From an uncultured Candidatus Cloacimonadota bacterium (GTDB lineage: Bacteria > Cloacimonadota > Cloacimonadia > Cloacimonadales > TCS61), in contig CAYSSJ010000006.1 in assembly GCA_964433675.1 (NCBI GenBank), forward strand, positions 62,656 to 126,655: a DNA stretch of 64,000 nucleotides, given 5' to 3'. Under the pieces are notes generated by a model. The model ran no database searches, was not told the origin of the DNA, and saw only the letters and a program-made list of their open reading frames with translations. Position 1 is the stretch's first letter. Each line of letters begins with the position of its first letter. Shown piece after piece: positions 7,597 through 53,710 of the stretch. The position numbers and the translations under genes were made by a program.

Positions 7597-8421
7597 ATGC
7601 TCTATATATTCTTAAGCATATTGTGCTCGGTGATCATCGGCAATATGCTGCTCTATTTTTCCAAGAATGATAAGAATGATATTCTGCTCATTTTTTTGGG
7701 AAATTACTTCTTCGCTGCCATATTCAGCTTTGTTCAGATAAAACCGGGAACGCTCAGCTTCGGTACTTTCGAGATTGTCTTCGGCTTTATCACCGGCTTT
7801 TTCTTTCTCTACAATTTTTTTGTCTATCAGAAAAATATCGCCTTGAACGGATTATCGCTCAGTGTAGGAATAATGCGCGTATCCGTACTTATCCCTACCT
7901 TCATGTCAGTTATCTTTTTCGACGATTTCATGAGTGTAGTTAATCTTATGGGTATCTTGGTGATCGTGCTGGCATTCTGGCTGATAACCGAGACCAGCAC
8001 GCTGCAAAAATTGATCTGGATTATCTTGCTTTTTTTCGTATCCGGTGCTACGGACTCTACGCTGAAAATATATAACGAACTCGGTCAGCCGGATCAATCT
8101 CCCTTTGTATTCATCCTCTTTAGCTCCGCCTTTATCTGCACTCTCATTTGGGTGGTGAAGACAAAAAGGGCATTTTCGCTTTCATGCATACTCTTCGGAT
8201 TTCTTTTGGGAATTCCCAACCAGCTCTCCACCCGCTTCTTCCTCATGGGACTGGAAACCGTTCCCGCCCCCATAGCTTATCCGCTTACCGCATCCAGTAT
8301 CGTGGTGTTCAGCATATTCAGCGATATTATCTTCTGGAGACGGATGTTCACTATCAAACAGCGCATCGCCCTGGCACTGCTGGTAGCGGGGATCGTGCTT
8401 ATAAACGCCCAAAACGGCTAA
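7597..8421 (+). CDS. polytopic membrane protein (possible DMT/EamA-like transporter)
   Basis: 274 aa with about 9-10 hydrophobic helices. No diagnostic motif recognised. Confidence 0.4.
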   Translation: MLYIFLSILCSVIIGNMLLYFSKNDKNDILLIFLGNYFFAAIFSFVQIKPGTLSFGTFEIVFGFITGFFFLYNFFVYQKNIALNGLSLSVGIMRVSVLIPTFMSVIFFDDFMSVVNLMGILVIVLAFWLITETSTLQKLIWIILLFFVSGATDSTLKIYNELGQPDQSPFVFILFSSAFICTLIWVVKTKRAFSLSCILFGFLLGIPNQLSTRFFLMGLETVPAPIAYPLTASSIVVFSIFSDIIFWRRMFTIKQRIALALLVAGIVLINAQNG

Positions 8422-9125
8422 TATACACTATCTCTTCTATAGCGTGTGCTCCTGTTTTTCCAGCTCTCTACAAAATGGGTATAAACCTGATCGTAGTTGG
8501 TTTTCATCTTCTTCTTTTTGTGAGAGAGTCTGTCCAATGTCTCTATATCTTTTAGTTCTATCTCCAAGTTTTCGTGTAATTTCTCTTTTTTGATGTACTG
8601 CTTCACATTCGGTGGTAGGATATTGTACAATAGAGCATAATCGGCATTATCCAGCTTGAATTCTTTGACCAGAAAATCGATAAATTCTTTTTCTTTGGGA
8701 TGAAACTCTTTATCTGCCACTATCAATAATAGTGAAGTTTCCAAGATCAGCATTTTCTCTTCTCTGGTTTTTATCTTTTTCAAAAGCTCTTTAAGCGGTG
8801 TCGGATTAGCAAATTCTTTTTCTATCTCTTGGATCTGCTCTTCGGTGAATTCTACATTGCCAAAAGCTTTATCAAAAGCCTTACGCTCTTCGGGCAAAAT
8901 CTTGCCGTCCTGCCAAGCAGCGCTGATTATCACCTTGATCGCATTGATCAGATTCGGGGTGAAAACAGGACATACCCTCTGATGCATATCTTCCGCCAAC
9001 ACTTGGTTTGTCTCTCTATCCACCAATTTGCCGACTTTTCTACCATCCTTATCTGTCATGATTGTGAACGAGTATTTTGAGTTAACAAAATATCCATCGA
9101 TACATTTAGCCATTTTTTCCTCCAA
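8418..9125 (-). CDS. TerB-like domain protein
   Basis: 235 aa. 'VIISAAWQDGKILPEERKAFDKAF' and a second 'LLLIVADKEFHPKEKEFIDFLV' match the helical TerB/DjlA-N-like pattern. The real start may be the Met at 9113. Confidence 0.45.
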   Translation of the reverse strand: MEEKMAKCIDGYFVNSKYSFTIMTDKDGRKVGKLVDRETNQVLAEDMHQRVCPVFTPNLINAIKVIISAAWQDGKILPEERKAFDKAFGNVEFTEEQIQEIEKEFANPTPLKELLKKIKTREEKMLILETSLLLIVADKEFHPKEKEFIDFLVKEFKLDNADYALLYNILPPNVKQYIKKEKLHENLEIELKDIETLDRLSHKKKKMKTNYDQVYTHFVESWKNRSTRYRRDSVY

Positions 9126-9392
9126 CTTTTTTTATCATTTCTTCATATAATAACTAATCTTTGACCATGTCAAAACATTATCTAATATATGACGCGAAAA
9201 ATACTCAACCTCAACAGCGGCAAGGTTTCTGATCTCATAGTGAAATCGTTTTTTCAAACTAATATCATTCTCCCGACCCTGCATCATCTCTGCTCCTTTG
9301 CAATTTATTTACTCAATTGCCACTTACAAAATTTTAGTCAAGTAGAAAATATCCCGACAGAAGTTTAGCAGAAAATTACACAGGTCTATCCT

Positions 9393-9428
9393 ATAAAAAA
9401 AAGTCCCGAGGGTGAAGTCGGGACTTTG
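9393..9428 (-). terminator. rho-independent terminator downstream of the four-helix-bundle gene
   Basis: The minus strand reads AGTCCCGA-cttcaccc-TCGGGACT followed by TTTTTTTT (stem 9402-9409 / 9418-9425). Confidence 0.7.
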
Positions 9429-9490
9429 GATTTATTTGGAGGAGACGGTCAGCCGTCAACTGTGTTATAGATTATTATGCTTTGCATAAT

Positions 9491-9539
9491 GGTTAGTGAT
9501 CAATGGTTAATGATCAATTGTTAATGGTTAATTTGGTGG
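9491..9539. repeat. degenerate tandem repeat array, inverted relative to 9887-9966
   Basis: 'ggttagtgatcaatggttaatgatcaattgttaatggttaatttgg'. Its reverse complement gives 'ttaaccatt(a/g)a..a'-type 14-bp units. It overlaps the last codons (LTINN*) of the four-helix-bundle gene. Confidence 0.7.
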
Positions 9540-9876
9540 ATTTTATGATGCTCGTTATTAATTTGATGATTTCAATGGCATCTTGGTTAATTGATTCAAA
9601 TTGCTCTGATGACAGATATTCAGTTTCTTTTAAAAGTTGAAGCCAGTAAATGGTTTCGTTTATTTCTTTTTGAGCGATGGCCATTTTATGTTTGAAATCC
9701 GCCTTGGTTTCAGCATGTTCAGCCTCCCGCACCATAGCGCCAACGCTCGTGCCACATCTCAACAATTGCTTTGAGAGTACAAACTCTTTTTTCTTTTGGC
9801 ACAAATACTGAAAAAGCCGCACGATCCTCACTGCAAAACTAAAACTCTTCTCCTTTACCACATTCTCTTTCACCAC
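9514..9876 (-). CDS. four-helix-bundle protein (23S rRNA intervening-sequence protein family, TIGR02436-like)
   Basis: 120 aa with a GTG start. 'FSFAVRIVRLFQYL...LSKQLLRCGTSVGAMVREAEHAETKADFKHKMAIAQKEINETIYWLQLL' is the characteristic pattern of this family. Confidence 0.8.
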   Translation of the reverse strand: MVKENVVKEKSFSFAVRIVRLFQYLCQKKKEFVLSKQLLRCGTSVGAMVREAEHAETKADFKHKMAIAQKEINETIYWLQLLKETEYLSSEQFESINQDAIEIIKLITSIIKSTKLTINN

Positions 9877-9886
9877 TCACCCCTCA

Positions 9887-9966
9887 TTAACCATTTACAA
9901 TTAACCATTTACAATTTACCATTTACAATTAACCATTCACAATTTACCATTTACAATTAACCAATA
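9887..9966. repeat. 14-bp tandem repeat, about 5.7 copies
   Basis: Units 'ttaaccatttacaa' / 'tttaccatttacaa' / 'ttaaccattcacaa' run head to tail from 9887. The array lies immediately upstream of the four-helix-bundle gene start. Confidence 0.9.
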
Positions 9967-10076
9967 ATGCTCATCTAAGTTTAATTGATACTTTGGATTA
10001 TAGTTTTCTAGTTTGCCACCATAATTCTGCATCTTTTTACCTTTTTCACCATCTTTTTCCCACTCATATTATGTTT
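9964..10076. repeat. direct repeat copy R1 (partner at 17983-18092)
   Basis: About 110 bp, roughly 80 % identical by eye to R2. The 25-nt core 'tgccaccataattctgcatcttttt' is identical (10014-10038 vs 18031-18055). Confidence 0.85.
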
Positions 10077-10094
10077 CTCCGCTCGATTAGCTGG

Positions 10095-10556
10095 TTAGTA
10101 ATCATTTATATGATGTTGTTTCTTATAGTAATCAATCGTTTGCAGCAGCCACCTTATTTGCACTTCATCTTTTGCTAGTTCAATTGCGCTCTGCTTTTCA
10201 AGTAAATCTTTTTGTTGTTGTAAGTTTTTATCAATGCTTTCCTGCAGAGCGACGAGGATATTTTTTTCTAAAGCGCTGCCAATTGCTACTAACTCTCCGC
10301 CTTCAAGATCGGGGTAACGAACACCGAAATATAACCTGTTATGGGTTTCACTGCCGATTTTTCGATCGAAACAAACAATCATCTCTTTTTTGTTTTGATC
10401 TTCTAACACAGCATATGTCGTTCCACCGTCACGATACTTATCAATCTCTACGATCGTAAAGGGCGGATTGTAGTCAAAAGCAATATGTTCGTGGTCAGAT
10501 GTCTTTGCACAAACAAAGAAAAGAGTGGTTATGATGATTAATAATGCTTTTTTCAT
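10095..10556 (-). CDS. hypothetical secreted protein/lipoprotein
   Basis: 153 aa. N-terminal 'MKKALLIIITTLFFVCAK' is signal/lipobox-like. No other motif recognised. Confidence 0.5.
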   Translation of the reverse strand: MKKALLIIITTLFFVCAKTSDHEHIAFDYNPPFTIVEIDKYRDGGTTYAVLEDQNKKEMIVCFDRKIGSETHNRLYFGVRYPDLEGGELVAIGSALEKNILVALQESIDKNLQQQKDLLEKQSAIELAKDEVQIRWLLQTIDYYKKQHHINDY

Positions 10557-10575
10557 AATTTTATGGTGTGTTTAT

Positions 10576-11409
10576 TTAATTGATAATATAACTTGCAGGT
10601 TGTAGCAGTTTTTTGCGTAATCTCCAAAATATAATTGCAATTACAATCGAACATATACTTACTCCAGCCCCCATCTCGCCGAGTAAATTTACCGTACTGC
10701 TTTTCTCGGTTAATAACTGGTCAAAAAAACCTTGAATTAAGAAATTGTGACTCGCATGATAGATTACTCCCACCCACAAACTGGCAGATTTTATTCGCAA
10801 CCACGTTAACATAAAGCTTAATGATATTAATGAAATACAACTAAACAAAACTTTTAGAATTAAGAAATCTCCACCGTAATTGGCGAGTATCATTAAAGGT
10901 AGATGCCATATAGTCCATACCAGACCAATGATAATTGATGTAGTTGTTAAATTTGACAACTTGTATAATCTTGGCGTCAGAAACCCACGCCAACCAACCT
11001 CCTCTCCAAATGCACCAATTGACCTGGCGATTATGCCTATCAGGAACAAAACAATTAATGCAAAACCAGAAGGAGAATCAGTTCCCATGATTGTAATCTG
11101 TTCATTAACAGAACCAATCTTAGTTAACCATGCAAATCCATATATTATTATCCCGTAAGTAATTGGAATTATAAAAGCCAAAAGCAGATACTTAGCTTTT
11201 CCGAATTTCCATCCAAGTTTTTTTATATTCCGTTCACATATTAATCTGGTAATTATAGCCGCAAGAAAAGGCGAATAAACCAATAAAAATGCAGCTATAC
11301 TATCTTCTGCTTTTGATGTTTCAGTTTCCGATATCAAGAAATAACTAATCCCACTTAAAATAAAAAGTAGGATAAAAAAAATACCGATTTCGCTTTTTAT
11401 CTTTCCCAT
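10576..11409 (-). CDS. CPBP-family intramembrane glutamic protease (CAAX/Abi type)
   Basis: 277 aa, polytopic. Carries 'GEEVGWRGFL' (EExxxR), 'TIWH' and 'YHASHNF' motifs. Confidence 0.8.
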   Translation of the reverse strand: MGKIKSEIGIFFILLFILSGISYFLISETETSKAEDSIAAFLLVYSPFLAAIITRLICERNIKKLGWKFGKAKYLLLAFIIPITYGIIIYGFAWLTKIGSVNEQITIMGTDSPSGFALIVLFLIGIIARSIGAFGEEVGWRGFLTPRLYKLSNLTTTSIIIGLVWTIWHLPLMILANYGGDFLILKVLFSCISLISLSFMLTWLRIKSASLWVGVIYHASHNFLIQGFFDQLLTEKSSTVNLLGEMGAGVSICSIVIAIIFWRLRKKLLQPASYIIN

Positions 11410-11444
11410 TTATTAAAAGTTACTCGCTTGTGTTTTATTAAATT

Positions 11445-11581
11445 GCCTGTAACGGTTGCGTGTATGAAACGTTGGGGATTGCGGGCTTCCTTCCTATCCA
11501 CCAACACAAACGCCGATGCGGGGCAGAACGCATGTTTTAACCACTTAAACCCCAATGTTTTATACACGATGTTGGCGGCAG
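11445..11581 (-). repeat. attC-like imperfect palindrome A
   Basis: Left arm 'gcctgtAACggttgcgtgtatgaaacgttgggg' pairs with right arm 'ccccaatgttttatacacgatGTTggcggcag'. It starts 25 nt after the S41 stop and ends 35 nt before the CPBP start. Confidence 0.55.
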
Positions 11582-11606
11582 TTTATAGTTCATAGTTCTT
11601 TGAGTG

Positions 11607-12851
11607 TCAGTACTTGCCTTGCTCAATCAGATTTATTATAAAATCTAATGCAACATCTCTTCCTTCAAAAAAATCATCCAGCGTTTCTTCAACATGATAA
11701 TGCGGTTCAATTGATTTACCCTCCATTGGGAAGCCCTGCGCAGAAAAATACGGTTGTTGTGTAGCCGCCCTGAACCTAATGTTGTTTTTTGTTGTGAAAA
11801 ACCGTGGACCACTTCCGGTATCACCTCCAGTAGGTTTTCCCACCAGAATAGCCTGGGCACCCTCTTTGAGGTCTATGACAAAACTTTCTGCTGCTGAAGA
11901 TGTTAGCCCACTAATCAATAAAAACAGGGTGCCTTTATAGTTATCGTTTCTTGGCGATAATGTTTTTTTAGACACACATGCCTTGTGCGGGTGTTTTAAT
12001 AAATAGGAAGCGATTTGCTCGCTTCTAGGGGAGTTGCCGCCAACATTATTTCGAATATCAATAATAAGATATGGTTTGTCTTTTACATCGTTAAAAGCAT
12101 TCGGGAAATCCAAAAGTGCACGTTCTTGCATTAAAGCAATAGATATATAACCAATGCTATCAGAGATGGCTCTGCTTTCAATCAAAGAACGAGGGGCACC
12201 GGCAGAACTTTTCCTTTTAAAAGGTTCAGGCTTACGGAAAACTACAGAAACCTCTTTTAATCCTTCATCAGTTCTAATTAAATAACTTCGCTCTTCCGGG
12301 AAATAACTCTGGAAAACATTAATTCTTGCTGTTTCTAACGAACCGACTATTGTAGATGCACTAACGTATGACATTTCCTGATTTAACCATTCCATTGCAG
12401 AAATATGATTTATTTCAACTATTTCATCTTTGGGCTGAATTCCTTTTTCTCGAAATGATTCATCAAACACATGGCTCAAATAAAGTCTATCTTCTAATAT
12501 CTTCGCCCAGTTATTAATTTCATACCTTCTTAAAGCTAAATTAGTATGCCCGTTTTCAAGTTCAGCAAAATATTGCAATAATATCCTTATGTATTCCTCG
12601 CCATTTTGAACGGCTTTAATTTGAGAATAAAAAGCTGAGAACAGCGAATCAGGATCGATGCCCTTATGCGAAAAAAATGAATAGTTCTCTTTAATGATAT
12701 GATGTATCTCTTTAAAATCCTCAAGAATTTCCGGCTGCTCAATTTTTAAATCCTCGACATATATAACATCATGTCTTTTTACACAACCAGTCATTAGAAG
12801 CATAAATGCCATAATAAAATAAAAGATACTTTTCTGATGATTATTAATCAT
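11607..12851 (-). CDS. S41-family (tail-specific/C-terminal processing) peptidase
   Basis: 414 aa with a lipoprotein-like N-terminus ('LLMTGC'). Carries 'LIIDIRNNVGGNS' and 'GLTSSAAESFVIDLK...LVGKPTGG' S41 blocks. Confidence 0.8.
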   Translation of the reverse strand: MINNHQKSIFYFIMAFMLLMTGCVKRHDVIYVEDLKIEQPEILEDFKEIHHIIKENYSFFSHKGIDPDSLFSAFYSQIKAVQNGEEYIRILLQYFAELENGHTNLALRRYEINNWAKILEDRLYLSHVFDESFREKGIQPKDEIVEINHISAMEWLNQEMSYVSASTIVGSLETARINVFQSYFPEERSYLIRTDEGLKEVSVVFRKPEPFKRKSSAGAPRSLIESRAISDSIGYISIALMQERALLDFPNAFNDVKDKPYLIIDIRNNVGGNSPRSEQIASYLLKHPHKACVSKKTLSPRNDNYKGTLFLLISGLTSSAAESFVIDLKEGAQAILVGKPTGGDTGSGPRFFTTKNNIRFRAATQQPYFSAQGFPMEGKSIEPHYHVEETLDDFFEGRDVALDFIINLIEQGKY

Positions 12852-12868
12852 AGTATTTGTTTTTTAAT

Positions 12869-12971
12869 TGCCGCCAACGTTCCGCGAGTATCCGAAGTTG
12901 GCGACCATCGGGAGCCAATTTGGGCGTAGCGAAGCGTAGCCGGGTACTCGCTGTTATGTTTAGTGCCCGGC
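12869..12971 (-). repeat. attC-like imperfect palindrome B
   Basis: 'tgccgccAACgttccgcgagtatccg...' pairs with '...cgggtactcgctGTTatgtttagtgcccggc'. The left 10 nt are the exact reverse complement of 11571-11580. The right 19 nt match the reverse complement of 14432-14450 at 17/19. Confidence 0.55.
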
Positions 12972-12989
12972 TGGTTGCAGATAGACGTC

Positions 12990-13012
12990 AAAAAGTACAT
13001 GGATGTACTTTT
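12990..13012 (-). terminator. hairpin terminator after the two-gene cassette
   Basis: Perfect palindrome AAAAGTACAT-gg-ATGTACTTTT with flanking A/T runs, 14 nt downstream of the 156-aa ORF stop. Confidence 0.6.
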
Positions 13013-13025
13013 TGATCATTTGGAA

Positions 13026-13496
13026 TTATTGTTCATCCTCCGTATACGGAATTGGTTTTCTCTCAATGACTATGCCCTTTAATAATTTTTCAAAATCTTT
13101 AAAAGCTGAGCATGCAGTATTCTTACTTATGTATTTAATAAACCCTGGATGTTCGGCTTTAATTGAGAATAGAGAATGTTTATCAATCGGATTTAAAATA
13201 ATGTCTTTCTCGTATAAATGATAATTGATTTTATCTTTTATTGATGGCCACAGCTCATCATAAAACAATGCATTCTTTAAATTCAAATAAGTTTCAGAAT
13301 TCCAAAATTCATTTATTGAAGCAAATACACTACTTGTTCTTAAGACAAATCCTCGAACCTTATTGGGTTTGCTTTTAATCAAGTAAAACCATTCTGTTAT
13401 AATTTCTTTTTCTGTTTCTTCTCCAGTTACTAATGCAAAGATTCCACCAAGCGTTGGAAAGTAGCCACAATGAAAAACTTCAAATTTACTGTCCAT
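13026..13496 (-). CDS. hypothetical protein, partner of the TIR-like protein
   Basis: 156 aa with no recognisable motif. Its own RBS (AGGGGG) sits in the 10-nt gap after the upstream ORF. Confidence 0.6.
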   Translation of the reverse strand: MDSKFEVFHCGYFPTLGGIFALVTGEETEKEIITEWFYLIKSKPNKVRGFVLRTSSVFASINEFWNSETYLNLKNALFYDELWPSIKDKINYHLYEKDIILNPIDKHSLFSIKAEHPGFIKYISKNTACSAFKDFEKLLKGIVIERKPIPYTEDEQ

Positions 13497-13506
13497 ATAT
13501 CCCCCT

Positions 13507-14379
13507 TTAATCTTGTTTATATATTACTTTAAGTCTTTTGTATAACTCATTACTTAAATCTCTCAAACCTTCTTCATTTGGCAAATATTTTAATGCTCTA
13601 TGATGCCCTAAGTCTGAGGGGATGTCATCTATTGATTGTGTAATTGGGATTACAGTTTTTCCTAGAGTATGTGCTATACCTGTTTCATACAACACATTAG
13701 GATTTTTTCCTGAAAAATCAACGACAATAACATTGGCGCAGAATATAAGATCAAAGATGTCCTGAATGAAAGTTGAATTATCCCATATATCATCTGCTCG
13801 GAGACATTCAAGTTTCATATATTCAGCAACCCTCTTTATTGCTGAATAAGTATTTGTAAAAGAACCTTGAAACGGTATCATGACAGAAATAAGTTTACTA
13901 TTAACCTCCTTTTGAGGTACTTGAAAAACACTCGGTTTAAATGTAATCAACCTCTCGGTTTGCACTTCATCAAATGATGTGGAAATAAATTCTCCATGAA
14001 TAGGCAAAACTTTAATCTTTCCATTTGGCTGTTCAGAAATGTTTAAATCATTTGTTTTTAATGATGAAGCAACTGCTTCCATTGCCTTTTCTCGGTTGAC
14101 ATCCTCGTTAAAAAGAAAATGATCTGGATGCAATAAATTTTCAATAACTTTAACAATTTCTGGCGAAGGCATATTAGCAGGTGATTGTTTTTTATTTAAT
14201 TCATCTAAGACATCGCGAACCCACACTCTACGTGTAGAACCATCATGTACATAGTCAAGATCCAAATCCACAAAAAAACGTGTTAGATATGATGAGCTTC
14301 GATAAGGGAAAAAGTTAAATGGATTATCTCCGCATATCATTTCAGCTAATTTAACGATTGTAGCAGATCCTAATTGCAT
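13507..14379 (-). CDS. two-domain protein with C-terminal TIR-like (PF10137-type) nucleotide-binding/NADase-like domain
   Basis: C-terminal 'VMIPFQGSF...IFCANVIVVDFSGKNPNVLYETGIAHTLGKTVIPITQSIDDIPSDLGHHRALKY' fits the bacterial TIR-like hallmark (..NVxFELGy..GkLG..rv..l....PSDL.G..y). I chose the ATG at 14379, preceded by GGAAGGAG. The ORF track extends to a GTG at 14403. Confidence 0.6.
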   Translation of the reverse strand: MQLGSATIVKLAEMICGDNPFNFFPYRSSSYLTRFFVDLDLDYVHDGSTRRVWVRDVLDELNKKQSPANMPSPEIVKVIENLLHPDHFLFNEDVNREKAMEAVASSLKTNDLNISEQPNGKIKVLPIHGEFISTSFDEVQTERLITFKPSVFQVPQKEVNSKLISVMIPFQGSFTNTYSAIKRVAEYMKLECLRADDIWDNSTFIQDIFDLIFCANVIVVDFSGKNPNVLYETGIAHTLGKTVIPITQSIDDIPSDLGHHRALKYLPNEEGLRDLSNELYKRLKVIYKQD

Positions 14380-14431
14380 TAATTCTCCTTCCCCCGAGGC
14401 CACGGATGGCCGAGGACTAAAAAGCCCTTAA

Positions 14432-14512
14432 GCCGGGCATTGAACATAACTACCGCATATATGCCATATGTCGTATATTCCACCATATTGGCACATATCA
14501 CGAATGTTTTAT
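14432..14512 (-). repeat. attC-like imperfect palindrome C (short form)
   Basis: 'acatAACtaccgcatatatgccatatg' pairs with 'catattggcacatatcacgaatGTTttat'. It ends 4 nt from the stop of the 98-aa gene. Confidence 0.5.
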
Positions 14513-14516
14513 TCTT

Positions 14517-14813
14517 TTATTTCTTAAGTGAATTTCTAAAATCATTAGCTCTTTTGTAGAAATCTTCATCTTCACCAAATTCCATAATTCTTGCCACTTT
14601 TCCGTTACAAACTTTACAGTTTCCTACAATCATAATATCATTTAGAGAATCCAATACATATTCTTTGATTTCTATTCCTTTTTCGCAAATACCTCTACAA
14701 GTAGAACAATAAACATTATGATTCACAATGAAGTCCAAACTTTTTTTTTGCTTATCATTTAGTAAAGCATTAAGCTGAAACTTATTAAGTTTAATTTCTT
14801 TCGGTCTTTTCAT
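14517..14813 (-). CDS. small zinc-ribbon-like protein (copy 1 of 2)
   Basis: 98 aa with two CxxC pairs ('CSTCRGIC', 'CKVCNG'). Near-identical paralog at 17668-17964. Confidence 0.65.
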   Translation of the reverse strand: MKRPKEIKLNKFQLNALLNDKQKKSLDFIVNHNVYCSTCRGICEKGIEIKEYVLDSLNDIMIVGNCKVCNGKVARIMEFGEDEDFYKRANDFRNSLKK

Positions 14814-14855
14814 TAAACCTCCTTCTTTGGTAAATTAATAGCACGGTCTTTCTTA

Positions 14856-15013
14856 GTATAACGGTTACTTATGTATGCCGTAATGCATTGCTGATCAGTT
14901 TCTTGTCCATCGACACGAAAGTCTGAGCAGTTTACAATGCATGAATACCAACTGAACCTACCGAAGGGAACTCAGCGAAGCTAATATCTTATGGCATATA
15001 CACTTTGTTATGC
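14856..15013 (-). repeat. attC-like imperfect palindrome D
   Basis: 'gtatAACggttacttatgtatgccgtaa' pairs with 'cttatggcatatacactttGTTatgc'. It lies between the serine-hydrolase stop and the 98-aa gene start. Confidence 0.5.
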
Positions 15014-15123
15014 TGCGTTTTATATTAATCATCATAATTTTTGATCAGTTCCGCAAGAAATAGTGAGGTTTCTTTCATATTGGCACTTTATTCCGCTTTA
15101 GTTTAACCGAAGTTGGTGGTTCG

Positions 15124-16239
15124 TCAGTTTTCTTTCCACATTGCTTTAATCAATCCGAAGCACAAGTTATCGATTTCACCCATATCTTTGTTAAAAGCCG
15201 AAACATTGGACAAAATTATTATGCCATTCTTATTATTTAAATCCAACGCCATTGATGAAGTGTAACCTCCTGTCCCTCCATTATGCCAAATTACCTCATT
15301 GTTCCCGTCACTTGCTTTTATGATGAGCCACCCTAAACCGATTTCCATTGTTTCGCTAAGTTTAAATGTCGGCTGATGGGTAAGCTGAAGTTCAGCATTT
15401 TCCTGCTCAAATTGAGCTAAAGAAAATTTCGTCAAATCTTCTACTGTTGATAGAATTCCGCCGGCTCCTACCAATACATTAAAATCCCAATTAGCAGTTT
15501 CTTTCCCATTACTATCAAGTCCTTTAACAAGTTCGCTTTTTAATTTGGATCGATCTGCGCTAGAAGATGACATTCCGTATTTTGAAAAGACGATCTCTTC
15601 AAGTAACTTGTTATAATTGGTAGTTGAAATTTCTTTCAATAGATAACCAAGAAGACCTGCACCAAGATTAGAATATTCATACTTTGTGCCAGGTGCTTGG
15701 TTAAGTTTGATTTTTTCTTTCAAGTATGATTTTAACTTTTCCTCATCATAATCTTTGTAAGGATTACTTGGGTCAGCAAGCATTAAGTTAAGATTGGAAG
15801 GTAATCTCGGCAAACCTGAAGTGTGATTGGCAAGCTGCTTAAAAGTTATCGATTCGTTAGTTTTAAGGTCAAAATCAACAAAATCTTGAATATTGTTTTC
15901 TAATTTGAGTCGATTATTTACCACAAAATTTGCTAATAAGGTAGAAGTGAAAATTTTGCTAATTGAGCCAATTTCAAAAGCACTTCTGTGGTTTTCAATT
16001 TGAATTATTGAGTCATTCACCCGCTTTATACCGATAAATTTGACTTTCCCCTTATCGATAATTGCGATAGAAAGTTGCGTGTTTTCAGGAAACGACTTTG
16101 TTTTTTCGTAAATCAATTCTGTTTGTTCTTCCGATATTTGGATTTGAGTACTTTTAAGACCGGTTTCGGCTATTTGGGTTTGTCCGTTTGAGCAACTCAA
16201 CAGAAAAAGCCCATTTAGTAACATTAATAGGTTTTTCAT
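15124..16239 (-). CDS. serine hydrolase, class-C beta-lactamase/PBP-like family, lipoprotein
   Basis: 371 aa with a lipobox 'LLSCS'. Carries SxxK 'GSISKIFTS' and YxN 'YEYSNLG', plus 'HNGGTGGYTS' near the C-terminus. Confidence 0.8.
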   Translation of the reverse strand: MKNLLMLLNGLFLLSCSNGQTQIAETGLKSTQIQISEEQTELIYEKTKSFPENTQLSIAIIDKGKVKFIGIKRVNDSIIQIENHRSAFEIGSISKIFTSTLLANFVVNNRLKLENNIQDFVDFDLKTNESITFKQLANHTSGLPRLPSNLNLMLADPSNPYKDYDEEKLKSYLKEKIKLNQAPGTKYEYSNLGAGLLGYLLKEISTTNYNKLLEEIVFSKYGMSSSSADRSKLKSELVKGLDSNGKETANWDFNVLVGAGGILSTVEDLTKFSLAQFEQENAELQLTHQPTFKLSETMEIGLGWLIIKASDGNNEVIWHNGGTGGYTSSMALDLNNKNGIIILSNVSAFNKDMGEIDNLCFGLIKAMWKEN

Positions 16240-16273
16240 TTTTAATCTTCCTCGATGTTTCGTTTATAATGAC

Positions 16274-16400
16274 CGCTAACGTCCCGAGTGTTTGCGGCGA
16301 CCGTCGTCACAATTAAAACCTGATGGAAAAAATGAAAATACAAAAAAGTTAAACTTTGACACTCCTTGGAAAATAGGATGTCGAAAACACTTTGTTATCA
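16274..16400 (-). repeat. attC-like imperfect palindrome E
   Basis: 'cgctAACgtcccgagtgtttgcggcga' pairs with 'tgtcgaaaacactttGTTatca'. The left flank 'aatgaccgctaacg' is identical to that of element F. Confidence 0.45.
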
Positions 16401-16411
16401 GACGTTCTGAT

Positions 16412-16933
16412 TCATATCTTATTCCTATACCACTTTAATGCTTTTTTTTCAAGACACTTTATAAAGTCGTTTTTTCCATCCATATAGGCCTCTATATCAT
16501 TTGGAAAACGTTCAGCAAGCATTTCTTTTAAATCACCATACCTTTTTGCAAAATAAGTATGCTGACGAAGAAAGTCACGAAAAGCAAGATGTCTCTCTAC
16601 ATCTTCACTATTAAATTGAAAAATATGGACATGGTGAGTACGATTATCCCCACCTTTTCGAAAATACCTGCGACCTGGGATCCCAAACTCCCCCATGGGA
16701 ACATATTGTAACCTAATCATTTTATCATTGAATTTATCAACTACTTCAATGTCCTTCAAAACAGGCATAATATCTATGGTTGGCTTTGCCTTTAAACCAG
16801 GCACAGAAGTGCTCCCGATATGGTGAACTTCAATCAATTCTTCGCCAAATATTTTTTGGATTTTTTCTGCTTCAGCCTTAAACATATCAGACCACTGGGG
16901 ATTATACTTTGTAACAATAACCTTCATGTTCAA
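16412..16933 (-). CDS. GrpB-family (UPF0157) nucleotidyltransferase-fold protein
   Basis: 173 aa. 'VHHIGSTSVPGLKAKPTIDIM' and 'HHVHIF' are typical of GrpB. Confidence 0.75.
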   Translation of the reverse strand: MNMKVIVTKYNPQWSDMFKAEAEKIQKIFGEELIEVHHIGSTSVPGLKAKPTIDIMPVLKDIEVVDKFNDKMIRLQYVPMGEFGIPGRRYFRKGGDNRTHHVHIFQFNSEDVERHLAFRDFLRQHTYFAKRYGDLKEMLAERFPNDIEAYMDGKNDFIKCLEKKALKWYRNKI

Positions 16934-16976
16934 AAAACTCCTTTATAATATTGAAAAAAGTAATTTAAAGAATGAC

Positions 16977-17098
16977 CGCTAACGGTCGAGTGTGTGTGCC
17001 GTAATGGATAACGGAGCAGTTACCTGCCCTTCCTTAATTGTTCTTCTGGATAAGCTGTTGAAGAAGCCATACTACTGACTTCATAACATAGGTTAGTT
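16977..17098 (-). repeat. weak attC-like element F
   Basis: Shares the 'aatgaccgctAACgg' end with E and has 'ggttagtt' at the other end, but arm pairing is poor (asymmetric spacers). Confidence 0.3.
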
Positions 17099-17101
17099 AT
17101 T

Positions 17102-17587
17102 CTATGCTTGTGGTTCAAGAACGAATACTATCTCATCCCAAGCGATTTCTCCTGTTTTTACAAACCCCAGTTTTTCACATAACCGGATCATGTTTTCATT
17201 ATTAGGTTCGATACTTGTATAAATAGCGGTGTTAGGATAGTCGGTATGCAACTTTTCTATAAGTAATAGAATAGCCGCTCCACCATATCCTTTGCGCTGT
17301 TCATCTTCAGCGATCATTAAACGACTCATCATAAGGCGTCGGTCTCCTACTTTATCAGCAAACGAGTTATCCCAATCATACATAAGGAACCCGACAATGC
17401 TGTCATTATCCCCAACTATAGCCATGGGATAACATTCATCCATGAATGTTGATTCTATTATTGAATACCAATTAGGAGCAACAAAACCTTCCTGCTCACT
17501 GCTAACTTCAAGATCACATACCTCTTCCCAGTTATCTGCATCAATTGGTATTAGTTTAACTTTATTCATCATATCCATCCTTTCCAA
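17102..17587 (-). CDS. GNAT-family N-acetyltransferase
   Basis: 161 aa. 'RLMIAEDEQRKGYGGAAILLLIEKL' is the acetyl-CoA binding motif A (Q/RxxGxG/A). Confidence 0.8.
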   Translation of the reverse strand: MERMDMMNKVKLIPIDADNWEEVCDLEVSSEQEGFVAPNWYSIIESTFMDECYPMAIVGDNDSIVGFLMYDWDNSFADKVGDRRLMMSRLMIAEDEQRKGYGGAAILLLIEKLHTDYPNTAIYTSIEPNNENMIRLCEKLGFVKTGEIAWDEIVFVLEPQA

Positions 17588-17667
17588 AATAAGTCTAGTT
17601 GTACTAACGAAAAAAGCAAAGATTGCTTATCACGACTACCTATGCTATGTTGCCTGTTGTTTGTCTA

Positions 17668-17964
17668 TTATTTCTCAAGTGAATTTCTAAAATCATTAGC
17701 TCTTTTGTAGAAATCTTCATCTTCACCAAATTCCATAATTCTTGCCACTTTTCCGTTACAAACTTTACAGTTTCCTACAATCATAATATCATTTAGAGAA
17801 TCCAATACATATTCTTTGATTTCTATTCCTTTTTCGCAAATACCTCTACAAGTAGAACAATAAACATTATGATTCACGATGAAGTCCAAACTTTTTTTTT
17901 GCTTATAATTTAGTAATATGTTAAGCTGAAACTTATTAATCCTAATTTCTTTCGGCCTTTTCAT
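17668..17964 (-). CDS. small zinc-ribbon-like protein (copy 2 of 2)
   Basis: 98 aa. Differs from copy 1 at only 6 residues: K8R, L9I, A16I, D20Y in the N-terminal 20, then one residue three from the C-terminus (K to E). Confidence 0.65.
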   Translation of the reverse strand: MKRPKEIRINKFQLNILLNYKQKKSLDFIVNHNVYCSTCRGICEKGIEIKEYVLDSLNDIMIVGNCKVCNGKVARIMEFGEDEDFYKRANDFRNSLEK

Positions 17965-17982
17965 TATATCTCCTTTGGCAAA

Positions 17983-18092
17983 TTATGGCTCATCTAAATT
18001 TTTAGTTGATACATTTTTAGTTTTCAAGTCTGCCACCATAATTCTGCATCTTTTTCCCCTTGTCACCTATTTTTTTCCATTCCATATTTCAC
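17983..18092. repeat. direct repeat copy R2 (partner at 9964-10076)
   Basis: See R1. On the minus strand it lies immediately upstream of the first array gene. Confidence 0.85.
17999..18027 (-). promoter_or_regulatory. candidate sigma70-type promoter for the cassette array
   Basis: Minus strand has TTGAAA (18027-18022), a 17-nt spacer, then TAAAAA (18004-17999), about 35 nt upstream of the ATG at 17964. The -10 is weak. Confidence 0.3.
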
Positions 18093-18822
18093 ACTGCTAT
18101 AGCAACTTACACTAAAATATTTTCATCCGCTTTTCGCAAGTAAATACAGCTTCGCCTCGTGACTTGCACAAATTTTTTGAAAAAACAGACATCTTCCAAA
18201 AAACTGTGAAGACGAGAATTGGGGCACTGGTAATTCTGCCAAAATAAATGTCAATCATTTTCTTTCTGTATAACATCCGAGAGAATTTAACTGCCGAAAG
18301 CACTTAGAGCTGAAAGCAGTTTTAAGTGATGAGTAATGAGTTTTTGAGAGAAGCAGGAAGAAAACTTAGCTAAAAGCTATAAGCTATAAGGGATAGGTGA
18401 TCCTTCTTCGCCTAACAGGCTTCGAAGGACACTGTATGTGATGCGGAAAGACAGGCGTAATGACGTACATGTGTCGCCCTGCCTGCCATTTCGTAGTAAA
18501 ACGAAGGATGGAGTGATCCCGATTTTTCGGGATTGTATCGAAGGGTGACAAATAAAATACCGCACTTACTAAGTTCACACTTCGATACGCTCCGGCTTAC
18601 GCCGAAGCTACTCAGTGTGACAAGCTTCTGACCTCTAAACCCTAAACTCTAAACTGCATCCTTGTCCTCCGTAGCCTCCCGAAGCATTTGCGAAGGGAGG
18701 CGAAGGAGGATTGCTACTCTTCCAATAAATCCTATTCTCCCAGCGCTCATCTGCAAAAATCGTTTGACATATATGACAAGAAACTTATTTGTTGATAAAT
18801 TCTAAGAATTAAGGAGAATGTT

Positions 18823-20283
18823 ATGGATGGGAAACAGCGTTATTTGAAAGCGGCAAAAGAGGCGATGGCGTGGATGCAAGAACAACGAGTTAAGATGCGA
18901 AAGTGTAAATTCGACACTATTGCGGTGCATGGACTTTATTCTATGCAAGAAGCATTGGATTTCAATCAGGGTTCTATCATCGAGCCTATATATTTATCTA
19001 CTTCCCAGGGTTATAGAGATGCAGATGAGATGGAGCTGGCTCTGGATTATCAGATCCCCACTTGGTGCTATGCTCGCATCGCCAATCCGAGTATGTATTA
19101 TTTAGAAGGTTTGCTGGCACTTTTGGAAGAGTACAAATCCGGCATGGAGTCCTCTTGTCTGGTTACATCTTCCGGTATGTCTGCTATCCGAGCGGTAGTA
19201 GAGGAATTTCTTCATCCCGATCCAAACGATCCTTCCCGTCCGCGCAATTTTGTAGCTACTTCTCAGGTTTACGGCGGCACCTATCAGCTTTTCTCCGTGC
19301 GCAAGGAAGCCGAAGGCGGCTGCGAATGGCGCAAAGTGATAAATTCTAATGACATCAACGAATGGGAATCTCTCATCGATGAGAATACACGTTTTCTCTA
19401 TGGTGAGTTACCGAGTAACCCGACATTGGCTTTCTTTGATATAGAGCAAGTAGCCGCTGTGGCGCACAAGCACGGCATTCCGCTCATTGTAGATTCCACC
19501 GTTGCTACTCCAGCTCTGATGCGTCCGCTGGCACATGGCGCTGATATTGTTATTCATTCTGTTACCAAATCACTCTGCTCTGCCGGTTTTGCCACTGCCG
19601 GAGCTATCATAGCTCGCAAGAATATCCCCGCACGAGTAGATAATGACAACCTGAAAGCCGATTTCTGTACCTATCTCAAACTGCTCCCCGGTCGCGATTA
19701 TGGTGCCAATCTCTCCCCTATCGTCTGTAATCTGATCATAAACGAAGTTCGCACTATCAGGATGAAAATGGATGCTATGTCCGATAATACCATGAAAGTC
19801 GCGGAGTACTTGGCAAAACACAAACATATCGAAAAAGTTAATTATCTCGGCTTAGAGAATCATGACCTGCACCAAGTCGCTAAAAAGTATATGTACCTTG
19901 TCGATGCCGAACATGACGATAAATATGGTAAGCCGATTAACCGTTATGGACATCTGATGTCTTTCGAAGTAAAAGGTGGAGCCGAGAATGCACGCATAGT
20001 TTTCGATAATCTCAGCACTATCTGGCGCGCTACCGATCTGGGCAGGATCAAATCCGTAGCTACCATCCCAGCTATCTCGACTCATTCACAGCAAGGTGAA
20101 GAGGGCAGAAAACTTGCCGCTATCCCGTCCAACCTGATAAGATTGAGTGTAGGTGCCGAACATCCGGACGATACCATAAAAGACCTCGAAAAAGCCTTAG
20201 CCGTCTTAGACGGTAAAAAACTAAAACACGACTCTCCGAACTATTCCGCCGGTGGAGCTTCGTCCGCAAGATTAAGAAAATAA
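18823..20283 (+). CDS. Cys/Met-metabolism PLP-dependent enzyme, O-acyl/phospho-homoserine sulfhydrylase-like
   Basis: 486 aa. Carries 'KFDTIAVHG', 'SSGMSAI' and a PLP-lysine block 'HSVTKSL'. RBS AAGGAG is 7 nt upstream. It is longer than a typical MetY (about 430 aa). Confidence 0.7.
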   Translation: MDGKQRYLKAAKEAMAWMQEQRVKMRKCKFDTIAVHGLYSMQEALDFNQGSIIEPIYLSTSQGYRDADEMELALDYQIPTWCYARIANPSMYYLEGLLALLEEYKSGMESSCLVTSSGMSAIRAVVEEFLHPDPNDPSRPRNFVATSQVYGGTYQLFSVRKEAEGGCEWRKVINSNDINEWESLIDENTRFLYGELPSNPTLAFFDIEQVAAVAHKHGIPLIVDSTVATPALMRPLAHGADIVIHSVTKSLCSAGFATAGAIIARKNIPARVDNDNLKADFCTYLKLLPGRDYGANLSPIVCNLIINEVRTIRMKMDAMSDNTMKVAEYLAKHKHIEKVNYLGLENHDLHQVAKKYMYLVDAEHDDKYGKPINRYGHLMSFEVKGGAENARIVFDNLSTIWRATDLGRIKSVATIPAISTHSQQGEEGRKLAAIPSNLIRLSVGAEHPDDTIKDLEKALAVLDGKKLKHDSPNYSAGGASSARLRK

Positions 20284-34020: not shown

Positions 34021-37000
34021 ATGTTTGAAAAAAGCAAAGTTATGAAAGGATTGATTCTCAACCGGAAATTCATAAAAAATTATGAGAGTATCAGCGAGTG
34101 CAAAAATGCCTCCGGCAGATTGGATTGTGCTGATCCTCAAAAGCTTAGCAAAGTGATCCATAAGATCAATCGGCAAAAAGAAGCTGAACATAGCCAAACT
34201 TATCGACCGGGGGAATTGCAGGCGATTATCATCTTAAATTCTATCAACAGATATATCTTCAGGAAATTTGCTCATACACTCTATCCGGAATTCTCAGATA
34301 CATTTATCAAAAGGCTCGAAACTGATGCAAGGGGAGCATTAGAAAGATTAGCGCGTCGGTTTAAAGATAATTTTGTACCTTTCGATGGAATAGAAAAACC
34401 AATCGGGATCATAGAAGAAGCAATTCTGCTCAATGTGTTGAGCGATAACAAGGCAGCTGCTCGCTATTGCGAACTTTTCGATGGCACCTTATTGGAAGAA
34501 TCGAAAGATTATCAGAAACTGCTCACCTCTTTCGAACTTAGCTGCGATAGCTATCCATTACCGAATTCAAAAGAGAAGAATCTGATTGCTTTTCTGAAGA
34601 AACCTGCCAAACTCTATCCGGACTCACTGCTTCATCAGCTCAAGTATATCAGTAGCAACTGGACAGAAATGCTCGAAGATTTCTTGGATGATATCCTTAA
34701 AAGAATCGACCTTTTACAAGAGGAGGAGAAAACTCGTTTCGCCGGTCCTGCTGCAGCGCAGTCTTACACTTTTTCAGATGAAGAAGAGGCGAGCGAAAAT
34801 TTTTCTGAGGACAAAAATTGGATGCCCCGCTTGGTGATGTTAGCCAAGAGTACTTATGTTTGGCTCAGTCAGCTTAGACGTAAGTATCAACGCTCTATTT
34901 ATCATCTGGACGATATACCGGAAGAGGAGTTAGCTCTACTTGCCAAGCATGGCTTTACGGGTTTGTGGCTTATTGGTATCTGGGAACGTAGTGCTACCTC
35001 TGCCAAGATCAAACGTCTGATGGGTGACCATGATGCTATCGCTTCTGCTTATTCTCTGAAGAATTATCGAGTTGCCGAAGCTTTGGGCGGAGAAGCTGCC
35101 ATGAACAGACTCAAAGAGAAGGCAGCCCGCTATAATATCCGCATCGCCTGTGATATGGTTCCCAATCATACCGGTTTGGATTCCGACTGGATGATCGATC
35201 ACCCGGACTGGTTTCTGCAACTCGATCATTCACCTTTCCCTTCCTACACATTTTCCAAACATAATCTCTCCGAACATGAAGATATCGAGGTCTATCTCGA
35301 AGATAAATATTATGATAGGTCAGATGCAGCGGTAGTATTTAAGTATTATGATCATAGAGATAACAGAACCAGATATATCTACCATGGGAATGATGGTACT
35401 CATATGCCTTGGAATGATACAGCTCAATTGAATTATCTCAAAGAGGAAGTAAGAGAAGCTGTTATCCACACAATCGTCGAAATTGCCAAAAGCTTTCCGA
35501 TCATCCGTTTCGATGCTGCAATGACACTGGCGAAAAAGCATTACCAGCGACTTTGGTTCCCACAGCCCGGCAGCGGTGGCGATATACCATCCCGCTCTCA
35601 GTTTTCTATGAGCAAAGAGGAATTCGCTAAACTTATGCCTGCTGAATTTTGGAGACAAGTGGTGGATAGAATTGCTCTCGAAGCACCGGACACATTGCTG
35701 CTGGCAGAAGCATTTTGGATGATGGAAGGTTATTTCGTTCGCACACTCGGAATGCATCGAGTGTACAACAGTGCATTTATGAATATGCTCAAAGAGGAAG
35801 ATAATGCCAAATACAGAAAATCGATCTATAATATCTTAAACTATAACCCGGAAATCCTGAAGAGATTTGTTAACTTTATGAGCAATCCGGATGAAGAGAC
35901 AGCGATCGAGCAATTCGGTGTGGATGATAAATACTTTGGTGTCTGCATCCTCATGTGCACAATGCCCGGTTTACCGATGTTCGCCCACGGACAGATAGAA
36001 GGATTAAAAGAACGCTATGGGATGGAATACAAAGAACCACAGTGGGATGAATCAGAAAATCGACCTTTGATCGTAAGACACAAAACAGAGATATTTCCGC
36101 TTCTGAAAAAACGATATCTCTTTGCTGAAGTGAATGATTTCGTCCTCTACGATTTTATCACCGCCAGTGGAGCAGTTAACGAAAATGTCTTTGTCTATTC
36201 GAACAACTATGAGAATGAAGCTGCCTTGGTAGTTTACAACAACAAATATGAACAAGCTTCCGGAAAGCTCCATATTGCATATAGATACAGAAAAGATGAT
36301 AATGGTAACCTAATCAAAACTTCTATCGACATAGCAAAAGCCTTGAAGCTGGATAATAATCCTAATTGTTATGCTATTTTCAGAGATAATATCTCCGGAT
36401 TGGAATATCTGAAAAACTGTAAGGATCTACATCAAAGTGGTATCTTCCTAGATTTGAAGGCTTTTAAATATTTCGTCTTTGCAGATATTCGCCAAGTATA
36501 TGATGAGAACGGGCAATATAGCGAACTGGCACATCATTTGAGTGGTGGAGGCATACCCAGTATCAGTAAAGCTATCAAGCGGAAGAATTTCAAGCCGCTT
36601 CTGAGAAGATTCACCGCTCTTATCTCCAAAGAAACCACCAAAAAACTACTCGAACTAAAAAGTGCTAAAACGGGTATGATGAAACATTTTGAAGCTGAGA
36701 TGTGTATCCGGATAATTGACTTTTTGGATGAAATGGAGAAAAAGATATCTTTTGAAGTTTCTAAGGAAGATATTTACGAAAAAATCAGTCATAATATGAT
36801 AACTTGGTTGCAAAATGATCACATCGATCTGCTTGGGAAAAGACTCTCTGGCAAATTAGCGGATTGTAAAACCCTACGGATACTTACACTCTATTGGATT
36901 TATCTGCATCCCATCGCTGAGTATAGTAGCTCAGCTAGCGATAATATTCTCTCCGATTTGCTTCTTGATGAGCTCATAGAGCAAAACATAGTCGAAATGA

Positions 37001-53276: not shown

Positions 53277-53353
53277 TGGGGTGGCTGATGGGACTTGAAC
53301 CCACGACCACAGGAGCCACAATCCTGTGCTCTACCGGCTGAGCTACAGCCACC
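53277..53353 (-). tRNA. tRNA-His (GTG)
   Basis: The reverse complement folds as a cloverleaf. It has an extra 5' G(-1), anticodon loop TTGTGGC, T-loop GGTTCAAGT, and an encoded CCA. Confidence 0.9.
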
Positions 53354-53358
53354 ATCTA

Positions 53359-53435: not shown

Positions 53436-53444
53436 ATAATATTT

Positions 53445-53520: not shown

Positions 53521-53523
53521 CAA

Positions 53524-53600: not shown

Positions 53601-53633
53601 TCACTATTTCACACTATAAATTACAAAAAAAAT

Positions 53634-53710
<77 letters not shown>

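Follow-up and report, generated by a model that had tools for sequence, protein, structure and literature searches.

Background

CALINs (clusters of attC sites that lack an integron-integrase) are recognised where at least two attC sites lie within 4 kb on one strand and no integron integrase gene (intI) lies within 4 kb. Thousands are known, with an average of ~6 sites (PMC4889954; PMC9024848), and they are proposed to arise by loss of intI, by rearrangement, or by off-target insertion of cassettes in trans (PMC8618304; bioRxiv 10.1101/2022.09.11.507474). A review lists Bacteroidota among the integron-carrying phyla (PMC8618304), and very few integron elements have been reported for the Bacteroidetes/Chlorobi group (PMC9024848). 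A full-text literature search returned no paper linking Cloacimonadota with integrons and attC. We have analysed 64,000 nucleotides (nt) of an uncultured bacterium assigned to Candidatus Cloacimonadota (GCA_964433675.1, contig CAYSSJ010000006.1, positions 62,656 to 126,655; hereafter the window), in which a block of minus-strand genes between core genes is very probably a CALIN, that is, an orphan array of integron gene cassettes comprising eight cassettes with ten genes. Both features of the CALIN definition are found in the block.

The locus resembles known CALINs in its co-oriented attC sites less than 4 kb apart, its unrelated accessory genes, the absence of a nearby integrase, and its size, with five good and two degenerate sites. 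It differs from them in that the sites were called by models built in this analysis and not by IntegronFinder, in that both terminal cassettes are damaged and a ~95-bp direct repeat brackets the array, and in its uncultured host, whose nearest metY homologues occur in metagenome-assembled genomes (MAGs) labelled Cloacimonas and Bacteroidales.

The attC sites of mobile and Vibrio integrons, such as the attC of aadA7, provide the canonical form for comparison. The elements described here share with it the order R''-spacer-L''-loop-L'-spacer-R', the outer AAC and GTT triplets, the G|TT crossover point, a length of 77-166 nt, a spacer that is longer on the ' side than on the '' side, and an R' remainder at the cassette start that complements the R'' at the cassette end. 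They depart from it in a boundary complementarity of 10-13 nt (AAC-N7-AAC / GTT-N7-ATT) where the canonical value is 7, in a more asymmetric spacer (1-4 versus 3-7 nt), in keeping only the GTTR of the GTTRRRY consensus, and in extrahelical bases that are not consistently visible.

Results

The block is framed by a TerB-like gene (8418-9125) on the left and by a metY-like gene (18823-20283, plus strand) on the right, and between them lie one gene of the 23S_rRNA_IVP family and ten successive minus-strand open reading frames (ORFs). The array proper spans 10095-17964 on the minus strand and consists of ten co-oriented, low-G+C accessory genes in eight cassettes. The original prediction had described an integrase-less, CALIN-like array of ten consecutive minus-strand accessory ORFs inserted between core genes, and it is borne out. 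All ten ORFs are present, with Pfam backing the GNAT, GrpB, Beta-lactamase, Peptidase_S41 and Rce1-like assignments, and the array is supported by complementarity at cassette boundaries, by recurrence of the S41 cassette at another locus (L082), by an independent descriptor and covariance model, and by a close relative that keeps both flanks but differs between them.

Seven of the nine intergenic gaps inside the array hold an element that carries ..AAC at its 5' side and GTT.. at its 3' side, read on the gene strand. Six palindromes had been predicted; the AAC/GTT-bounded elements are real, and the count is five good sites, which form clear imperfect hairpins (B-F), plus two degenerate ones (G and A). 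Sites B-F share one layout, in which R''(..AAC) is followed, after a 1-4-nt spacer, by L'', a loop of 31-110 nt and L', and a further spacer of 3-7 nt leads to R'(GTT..); the sites are 77-166 nt long in total. All five are located 3' of ORFs in one common orientation on the minus strand, at intervals of 0.5-1.5 kb. Their placement agrees with the cassette layout that had been claimed, with 0-107 nt between the stop codon and the first base of R'' and ~20-46 nt between the last base of R' and the following start codon. AACA stands at the 5' side of all five good sites and CGTT at the 3' side of four, the exception being D; together these place a G.T wobble beside the AAC/GTT triplet on the bottom strand only. 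The arms L'' and L' pair at a mean of 8.6/10 positions within a site versus 5.7 +/- 1.2 between sites, which indicates that structure is conserved and sequence is not.

If a cassette circularises via attC, recombining between G and TT, its start is expected to complement its own-end R''. Boundaries were therefore scored by counting complementary positions between two 12-nt stretches, one following G|TT where the cassette starts and one preceding AAC where the same cassette ends. The count was 10/12 for the 298/156-aa cassette, 10/12 for the S41 cassette, 8/12 for the GrpB cassette and a marginal 6/12 for the GNAT cassette, whereas non-cognate pairs in the window averaged 3.56 and did not exceed 6 (n = 36). 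A reference array, L028, was located via homologues of the Zn-ribbon protein described below; its small ORFs follow one another in one orientation, with elements of the layout given above between them. There all seven cassettes scored 6-10/12 against a non-cognate mean of 3.86, and the cassette start after G|TT is the reverse complement of the own-end R'' (GTTACATGC/GCATGTAAC, GTTAGGCTCT/AGAGCCTAAC, GTTAGCGTAC/GTACGCTAAC). For the R'' boxes of sites E and F the best partner is in each case the R' of the upstream site, at 10/12. Pairing with their own R' gives 2/12 for E and 8/12 for F, and the poor internal match of E is accounted for because each cassette would circularise through G|TT. The R boxes of both the window and L028 exceed the canonical 7 bp, with AAC-N7-AAC as the left and GTT-N7-ATT(AAAA) as the right box.

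Modularity across two contexts was examined for one cassette, that of the S41 peptidase. Locus L082, found through a 90%-cluster variant of the S41 protein, is 92.6% identical to window positions 12880-11570, and identity starts exactly at ..AC[G/A]|TTGGCGGCAATT, which is the G|TT of attC E (12878|12877). Upstream of this breakpoint L082 has the 3' end of an IS91-family transposase gene (the C-terminal 106 aa, at the contig start) followed by ~310 nt of non-coding DNA, where the window has attC E. At the far end attC F keeps its R'' and R' boxes, the first part of L'' and the last part of L', and the loop and the next gene differ. With the homology breaking exactly at G|TT and the neighbours differing, the S41 cassette is a module bounded at the canonical crossover point.

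The specificity of these features was assessed with descriptors and covariance models. A strict descriptor was derived from the L028 sites alone and required AACA, an L stem of 10 bp with a score of 9 or more (bottom-strand G.T pairs counting half), [AG][AC]CGTT[AG], and the spacer and length ranges of L028. On both strands of the window it matched B, E and F only; across 300 dinucleotide shuffles the mean was 0.01 matches, and none (0/300) held two or more. A looser descriptor adds C, with 0.05 matches expected. The strict version produced one match in 368 kb of other loci, within a dihydrolipoyl-dehydrogenase-like gene of L012, and this is taken as chance because it lies inside coding sequence. 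A simple descriptor (AAC, a 7-of-8 stem, GTT) was dropped as far too permissive, with dozens of chance matches. Covariance model R3 drew on a training set of eight sites, taken from L028 and L037 and including no window sequence, and modelled the loop as an insertion. Its best window match was F (26.2 bits, E = 1.9e-4) and its second C (20.5 bits, E = 7e-3), both at full length with the expected ends, on one strand and 3.4 kb apart, and the next matches were noise (E >= 0.15). R3 also matches the cassette-like arrays L032, L044, L080, L081 and L082.

The original prediction would have fallen had the palindromes belonged to a dispersed family of repetitive extragenic palindromes (REPs) or miniature inverted-repeat transposable elements (MITEs). 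Model R1, built from four window sites with their loops, re-found its own training sites only and was useful for such a copy search; R1, the descriptors and R3, three scans in all, found no further copy outside the block in the 64-kb window. The elements do resemble REPs, bacterial interspersed mosaic elements (BIMEs) and MITEs in being imperfect palindromes in intergenic DNA. REP and MITE families, however, are conserved in sequence and dispersed through the genome, whereas these elements differ in sequence, are confined to the block within the window and carry cassette-boundary signatures.

The individual sites, all on the minus strand, are as follows in order of transcription. attC G (17599-17666) is degenerate, with an R''-like ..ACAAAC(AAC), R' GTTAGTA and almost no L stem; the forced AAC/GTT fold is at +3.7 kcal/mol, and its R' agrees with the R'' of site A in 6/12 positions. 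attC A (16973-17102) is partly degenerate, its R'' AACTAAC overlapping the stop codon and its L'' partner missing, and its L'-spacer-R' half (ACACTCGACCGTTAGCGGTCATT) is near-identical to that of site B. attC B (16270-16404) reads CTGATAAC-AAA-GTGTTT..//..AAACAC-TCGGGAC-GTTAGCGGTCATT and folds better on the bottom strand. attC C (14852-15017), a loose-descriptor site, reads GCATAAC-AAA-GTGTATATGCC..//..GGCATACA-TAAGTAACC-GTTATAC. attC D (14440-14516) is short, begins at the stop codon and reads ATAAAAC-ATT-CGTGATATGTGCCAATATG..//..CATATGGCATATATGCG-GTA-GTTATGTTC; its hairpin is at -9 kcal/mol on the top strand, it fails the descriptor through GTAGTT where CGTT is required, and its R' pairs with the R'' of site E as a cognate partner (10/12). 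attC E (12868-12963), ACATAAC-A-GCGAGTA..//..TACTCGC-GGAAC-GTTGGCGGCAATTAAAA, folds at -14.6 kcal/mol on the bottom strand versus -7.9 on the top, and attC F (11443-11581), AACTGCCGCCAAC-ATC-GTGTATAAAACATTGGGG..//..CCCCAACGTTTCATACAC-GCAACC-GTTACAGGCAATTT, at -19.6 versus -15.8 kcal/mol.

Three further short features were observed among these sites. Directly after the hydrolase stop, at 15101-15123 on the minus strand, lies a possible remnant mini-attC (CGAACCACCAAC TTCG GTTAAAC; minimal motif CCACCAAC-TTCG-GTTAAAC), whose R''-like box agrees, compared by eye, with the R' of site B in 7/10 positions and which is followed by ~85 nt without an ORF up to attC C. The two may represent an attC that has collapsed and a cassette without an ORF. 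At 12988-13015, between the 156-aa gene and attC E, a perfect 13-bp palindrome (TCAAAAAGTACAT/ATGTACTTTTTGA) is by appearance a separate terminator-type hairpin. The 11-mer GTTGGCGGCAA, the R' box of attC E (12868-12878, minus), recurs within the S41 coding sequence at 12034-12044, probably by chance.

The cassette genes, likewise all on the minus strand, begin with a 98-aa Zn-ribbon protein (cassette 1, 17668-17964) that has no Pfam match and whose cassette lacks its 5' end. Cassettes 2 to 4 encode a GNAT acetyltransferase (17102-17587; PF00583, E = 2.5e-10), a GrpB-family protein (16412-16933; PF04229, E = 1e-52) and a serine hydrolase of the beta-lactamase/AmpH family (15124-16239; PF00144, E = 8e-39), for which AmpH is the nearest NCBIfam model, with AmpH and class C scores far under every curated cut-off. 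Cassette 5 carries a second 98-aa Zn-ribbon gene (14517-14813), cassette 6 (13026-14403) a 298-aa gene (13507-14403) and a 156-aa gene (13026-13496), and cassette 7 an S41 C-terminal processing peptidase (11607-12851; PF03572). Cassette 8, the last, holds a 277-aa CPBP/Rce1-like protease (10576-11409; PF02517) and a 153-aa gene (10095-10556) and is without a terminal attC. The 298/156-aa genes are separated by 10 nt and the CPBP/153-aa genes by 19 nt, and each pair is counted as one cassette because no element lies in either gap. Five proteins (both Zn-ribbons and the 298-, 156- and 153-aa proteins) had no significant Pfam match, and for the uncharacterised cassette proteins Pfam at lax thresholds and PDB sequence searches gave nothing significant. 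The 298- and 156-aa genes had been called a TIR-like pair; what stands of this is a single weak PADLOC TIR match for the 298-aa protein (E = 3e-4), and Pfam and PDB gave no significant match. A single-sequence AlphaFold model of this protein, made with no alignment, was unusable (pLDDT 33).

The two Zn-ribbon proteins are 95% identical and carry two CxxC pairs, and their DNA identity spans only ~25 nt upstream of the ATG through the stop codon. Homologues elsewhere (L025, L033, L034, L028, L032, L037) occur in cassette arrays or directly after Fic/RhuM genes, and some overlap the stop codon of the Fic/RhuM gene or of a 182-aa ORF. This genomic company suggests that the Zn-ribbon may be a small partner protein, perhaps antitoxin-like, orphaned in the array.

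No tyrosine recombinase or attI had been visible in the window, and dedicated searches agree. The Phage_integrase domain was found in 0 of the 39 window ORFs scanned against Pfam, and tblastn with IntI1 (E <= 10) returned noise only; the 64 kb contain neither an integrase gene nor a fragment of one, and no attI. The IntI1 query is identical to P0030; a search for intI through IntI1 homologues returned IntI1-like proteins only. The array head likewise has no intI, attI or cassette promoter (Pc); it borders on a direct repeat, and 650 nt of non-coding DNA lie ahead of metY.

At three other loci, L037 (3995-4700), L080 (9766-15200) and L081 (1-12100), successive attC sites carry an IS91-family element within their R'' box (..GCGATT|GTTCAAC). 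The element codes for a Y2 transposase and for a tyrosine recombinase 289-298 aa long (PF13495 + PF00589), and has inverted ends GTTGAACTA.../...TAGTTCAAC, also given as GTTGAACTACATCC...GGATTTAGTTCAAC. The recombinase/Y2 gene pair stands ~100 nt from the attC site and divergent to it, and L037 holds several decayed fragments of the element. GTTC is the known target of IS91, and by this insertion the element looks like an attC-targeting insertion sequence (IS). Its nearest known counterparts are the attC-targeting IS1111-attC and group IIC-attC introns and the ISCR1/IS91-like elements of complex class 1 integrons, from which it differs in carrying both a tyrosine recombinase and a Y2 transposase. 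The recombinase is not an IntI, being 26% identical to IntI1 and ~40 residues shorter. A truncated tyrosine recombinase of L037 was considered as a decayed intI and rejected, its intact homologues being partners of IS91/Y2 transposases. The window has no trace of the IS91-family element.

Both terminal cassettes are damaged, the first lacking its 5' end and the last its attC, which corrects the original prediction. No G|TT boundary was found upstream of cassette 1, which is without the 22 nt seen in cassette 5 between G|TT and the start of Zn-ribbon homology. After the last gene there is no element, and the expected R'' (AATTGCCTGTAAC) was not found downstream. The array is bracketed by a direct repeat. 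Copy DR1 (17988-18078, minus strand) lies directly upstream of the cassette 1 gene and abuts its promoter region, with weaker similarity perhaps to ~18125; copy DR2 (9969-10060, minus strand) lies downstream of the last gene, with weaker similarity to ~10083, and begins within ~35 nt of that gene (~12 nt with the weaker similarity). The copies are 82% identical over 95 bp and share an exact 24-mer (AAAAGATGCAGAATTATGGTGGCA) with two occurrences in the window. No further copy of the ~95-bp repeat was found in the window or the fetched loci, and the 24-mer had 0 matches in the metagenome collection, which evidently lacks this organism. The repeat may be the scar of a homologous or Campbell-type recombination that brought or trimmed the array. 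Off-target insertion at attG sites, as in single attC sites lacking integron-integrases (SALINs) and small CALINs (bioRxiv 10.1101/2022.09.11.507474), is a route by which cassettes reach positions between core genes without intI or attI, and it leaves a G|WT junction at the first cassette. Such a junction is unreadable here, the first cassette having no 5' boundary and running up against the direct repeat.

Repeats of other kinds adjoin the array. DR2 runs into 14-nt tandem repeats upstream of the 23S_rRNA_IVP gene (9514-9876, a four-helix bundle). These repeats (ATTAACCATTTACA-like) flank the gene at 9487-9533 and 9872-9977, tandem on one side with related inverted copies on the other, and similar repeats occur in L023. 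On the opposite side, 18100-18746 is ~650 nt of hairpin-rich non-coding DNA upstream of metY, in which short tandem motifs (GTTTAGAG / CTTATAGC) occur together with inverted repeats, for example those at 18530-18593 and 18665-18710. This stretch is missing from the close relative contig L035 and has no Rfam match.

The close relative, from SRR32456876 (contigs L036 and L035, found via 90%-cluster variants of metY and of an EamA gene), shares ~85% nucleotide identity in the flanks. Homology ends at 9183 on the left and resumes at 18747 on the right; beyond these points the two contigs continue for 225 and 95 nt of unrelated sequence and then stop. Conserved synteny in all relatives, which would have spoken against a cassette array, is not what this close relative shows: the block differs. 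The limits first given, 9964-18092, lie between conserved flanks, and the sequence comparison indicates that the strain-variable block is wider, 9184-18746, including the 23S_rRNA_IVP module and the 650 nt of hairpin-rich DNA. Relatives in GTDB have metY 57-78% identical, the best in a MAG labelled Cloacimonas (78%) and then in Bacteroidales MAGs (66-70%); they share nothing upstream of metY and are too distant to inform on the block. Two independent JGI assemblies (107 and 147 kb) cross the whole block into core genes on both sides, so that assembly error is unlikely; ENA assemblies break inside the duplicated Zn-ribbon gene.

A lower G+C content in the block had been reported from spot counts, and these understated a clean compositional break. 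In 1-kb windows G+C is 0.315-0.380 across 9001-18000 versus ~0.38-0.48 elsewhere, with one exception (36001-37000, 0.373), and G+C at third codon positions (GC3) is 0.20-0.35 in 10/10 cassette genes versus 0.36-0.59 in 34/34 core genes, with no overlap. Over the whole window a Shine-Dalgarno-like motif precedes 25 of the 34 core genes (22 nt upstream of ORF starts were inspected). Frequent Shine-Dalgarno motifs are unusual for Bacteroidota. Taken with the metY result, this count suggests that the host is probably not a typical member of Bacteroidota and may belong to another lineage of the Fibrobacteres-Chlorobi-Bacteroidetes (FCB) group, although most metY relatives carry the label Bacteroidales. 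Five tRNA genes, for His, Arg and three times Met (CAT anticodon), are clustered at 53277-53710 on the minus strand.

Discussion

Several observations weigh against reading the block as a CALIN. Two cassettes, those of the hydrolase (5/12) and the second Zn-ribbon (4/12), score at background in the boundary test. R3 returns only F and C at E < 0.01, with E at 12.2 bits (E = 1.5), D partial and B missed, and a loop-trimmed model, R2 (L028 sites with the loop replaced by GAAA), found nothing, a technical failure in that it could not bridge real loops. No attC-like family of Rfam matched at gathering and E-value thresholds, and membership in the canonical attC family rests on anatomy together with models built in this analysis. 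R' agrees with GTTRRRY dependably only as GTTR, which is kept in 7/7 sites, with positions 5-7 fitting in 4/7, 3/7 and 2/7. Folding of the bottom strand (the plus strand of the window), which had been proposed as a check, is the more stable in nine of eleven sites of the attC family and in only three of the five in the window. The extrahelical bases sought in the same check are not consistent, single-base bulges of the '' arm occurring only in D and in site a6 of L028. Stems are enriched in top-strand A.C, equivalent to bottom-strand G.T, and the enrichment is suggestive only, since it is not significant against the non-cognate control (own estimate, p ~0.13). Neither end of the array coincides with a G|TT junction, and the standard model has no role for the direct repeat that flanks it. 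Finally, no integron integrase adjoins any array of this attC family in the ~0.9 Mb fetched, and the recombinase is inferred.

On the CALIN reading, each cassette would once have been a small circle closed by its own attC, and a tyrosine recombinase of the integron-integrase type would have inserted the cassettes, recognising the folded bottom strand of attC and cutting at the G|TT of R'. The array would now be passive, either separated from its integrase or built in trans and then damaged. The first cassette would have lost its 5' end and the last its attC, and sites G and A would have decayed. The damaged ends favour loss of intI or rearrangement as the origin, without proving it. The internal cassettes between the intact-looking sites B-F (hydrolase, second Zn-ribbon, 298/156-aa pair and S41) could still excise and reshuffle if an IntI were encoded elsewhere. 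With no Pc/attI region present, expression would have to come from read-through or from promoters inside the cassettes.

The absence of an IntI near any array of this attC family (the window, L028, L032, L037, L080, L081 and L082, all from uncultured FCB-group-like bacteria) raises the question of whether these attC-like sites, though real, are served by a different recombinase, with that of the IS91-family element as the candidate, in a distinct integron-like cassette system. The candidate has the same Pfam domain pair as IntI, and sits with its Y2 partner ~100 nt from attC in L080, L081 and L037, and in L082 an IS91-family transposase gene and ~310 nt precede the G|TT start of the S41 cassette; the R boxes are also longer than the canonical 7 bp. 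Its junctions, however, resemble IS insertion into GTTC inside R'', and the element has inverted ends of its own. It recurs at several successive attC sites like an invading IS and not once at the head of an array. The recombinase, distant from IntI1 and shorter, lacks the IntI-specific insert, its homologues are routinely paired with Y2_Tnp outside arrays, and the element has left no trace in the window. We therefore regard service by a non-IntI recombinase as unlikely. The broader proposal that the seven loci form a lineage-specific cassette system without canonical IntI, with 10-13-bp R boxes and an Xer-like, IS91-borne recombinase, is improbable to a similar degree; if true, it would constitute a second, independently evolved way to run a cassette array.

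It is also conceivable that the array is not truly orphan, being either the distal part of a complete chromosomal integron with intI outside the 64 kb or one split by rearrangement or an assembly artefact. The region examined covers 64 kb where contigs of this organism reach 200-280 kb, and the ENA assemblies break in the duplicated Zn-ribbon gene. The JGI assemblies nevertheless cross the block, no intI lies within ~9 kb of the array tail or ~46 kb of its head, and by the IntegronFinder rule of no intI within 4 kb the array would still be a CALIN, so that we consider this explanation very unlikely. Least probable of all, and already largely refuted, is an ordinary horizontally acquired island whose palindromes are terminators or REP-like repeats with no cassette biology. 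Hairpins 3' of genes can act as terminators, separate terminator-like hairpins do occur (such as that at 12988-13015), two sites are degenerate and no integrase is present. Terminators, however, would not be expected to show start/R'' complementarity across 1.2-1.5 kb, nor an S41 module to break exactly at G|TT in another context. The elements also lack the T-run of intrinsic terminators, are missing from the other 55 kb of the window, and are recognised by an independent model drawn from other arrays.

Conclusions

The array leaves the understanding of integrons unchanged, and its cargo is typical of chromosomal cassettes, with 0 recognised resistance genes. With it, an uncultured lineage outside Proteobacteria, where integrons are rarely reported, gains a well-documented cassette array, and boundary complementarity together with a cassette found in two contexts provides evidence independent of the IntegronFinder training set. 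The comparison suggests that attC sites in such lineages differ somewhat in box lengths and spacers, and surveys tuned on proteobacterial sites may undercount the attC sites of such lineages.

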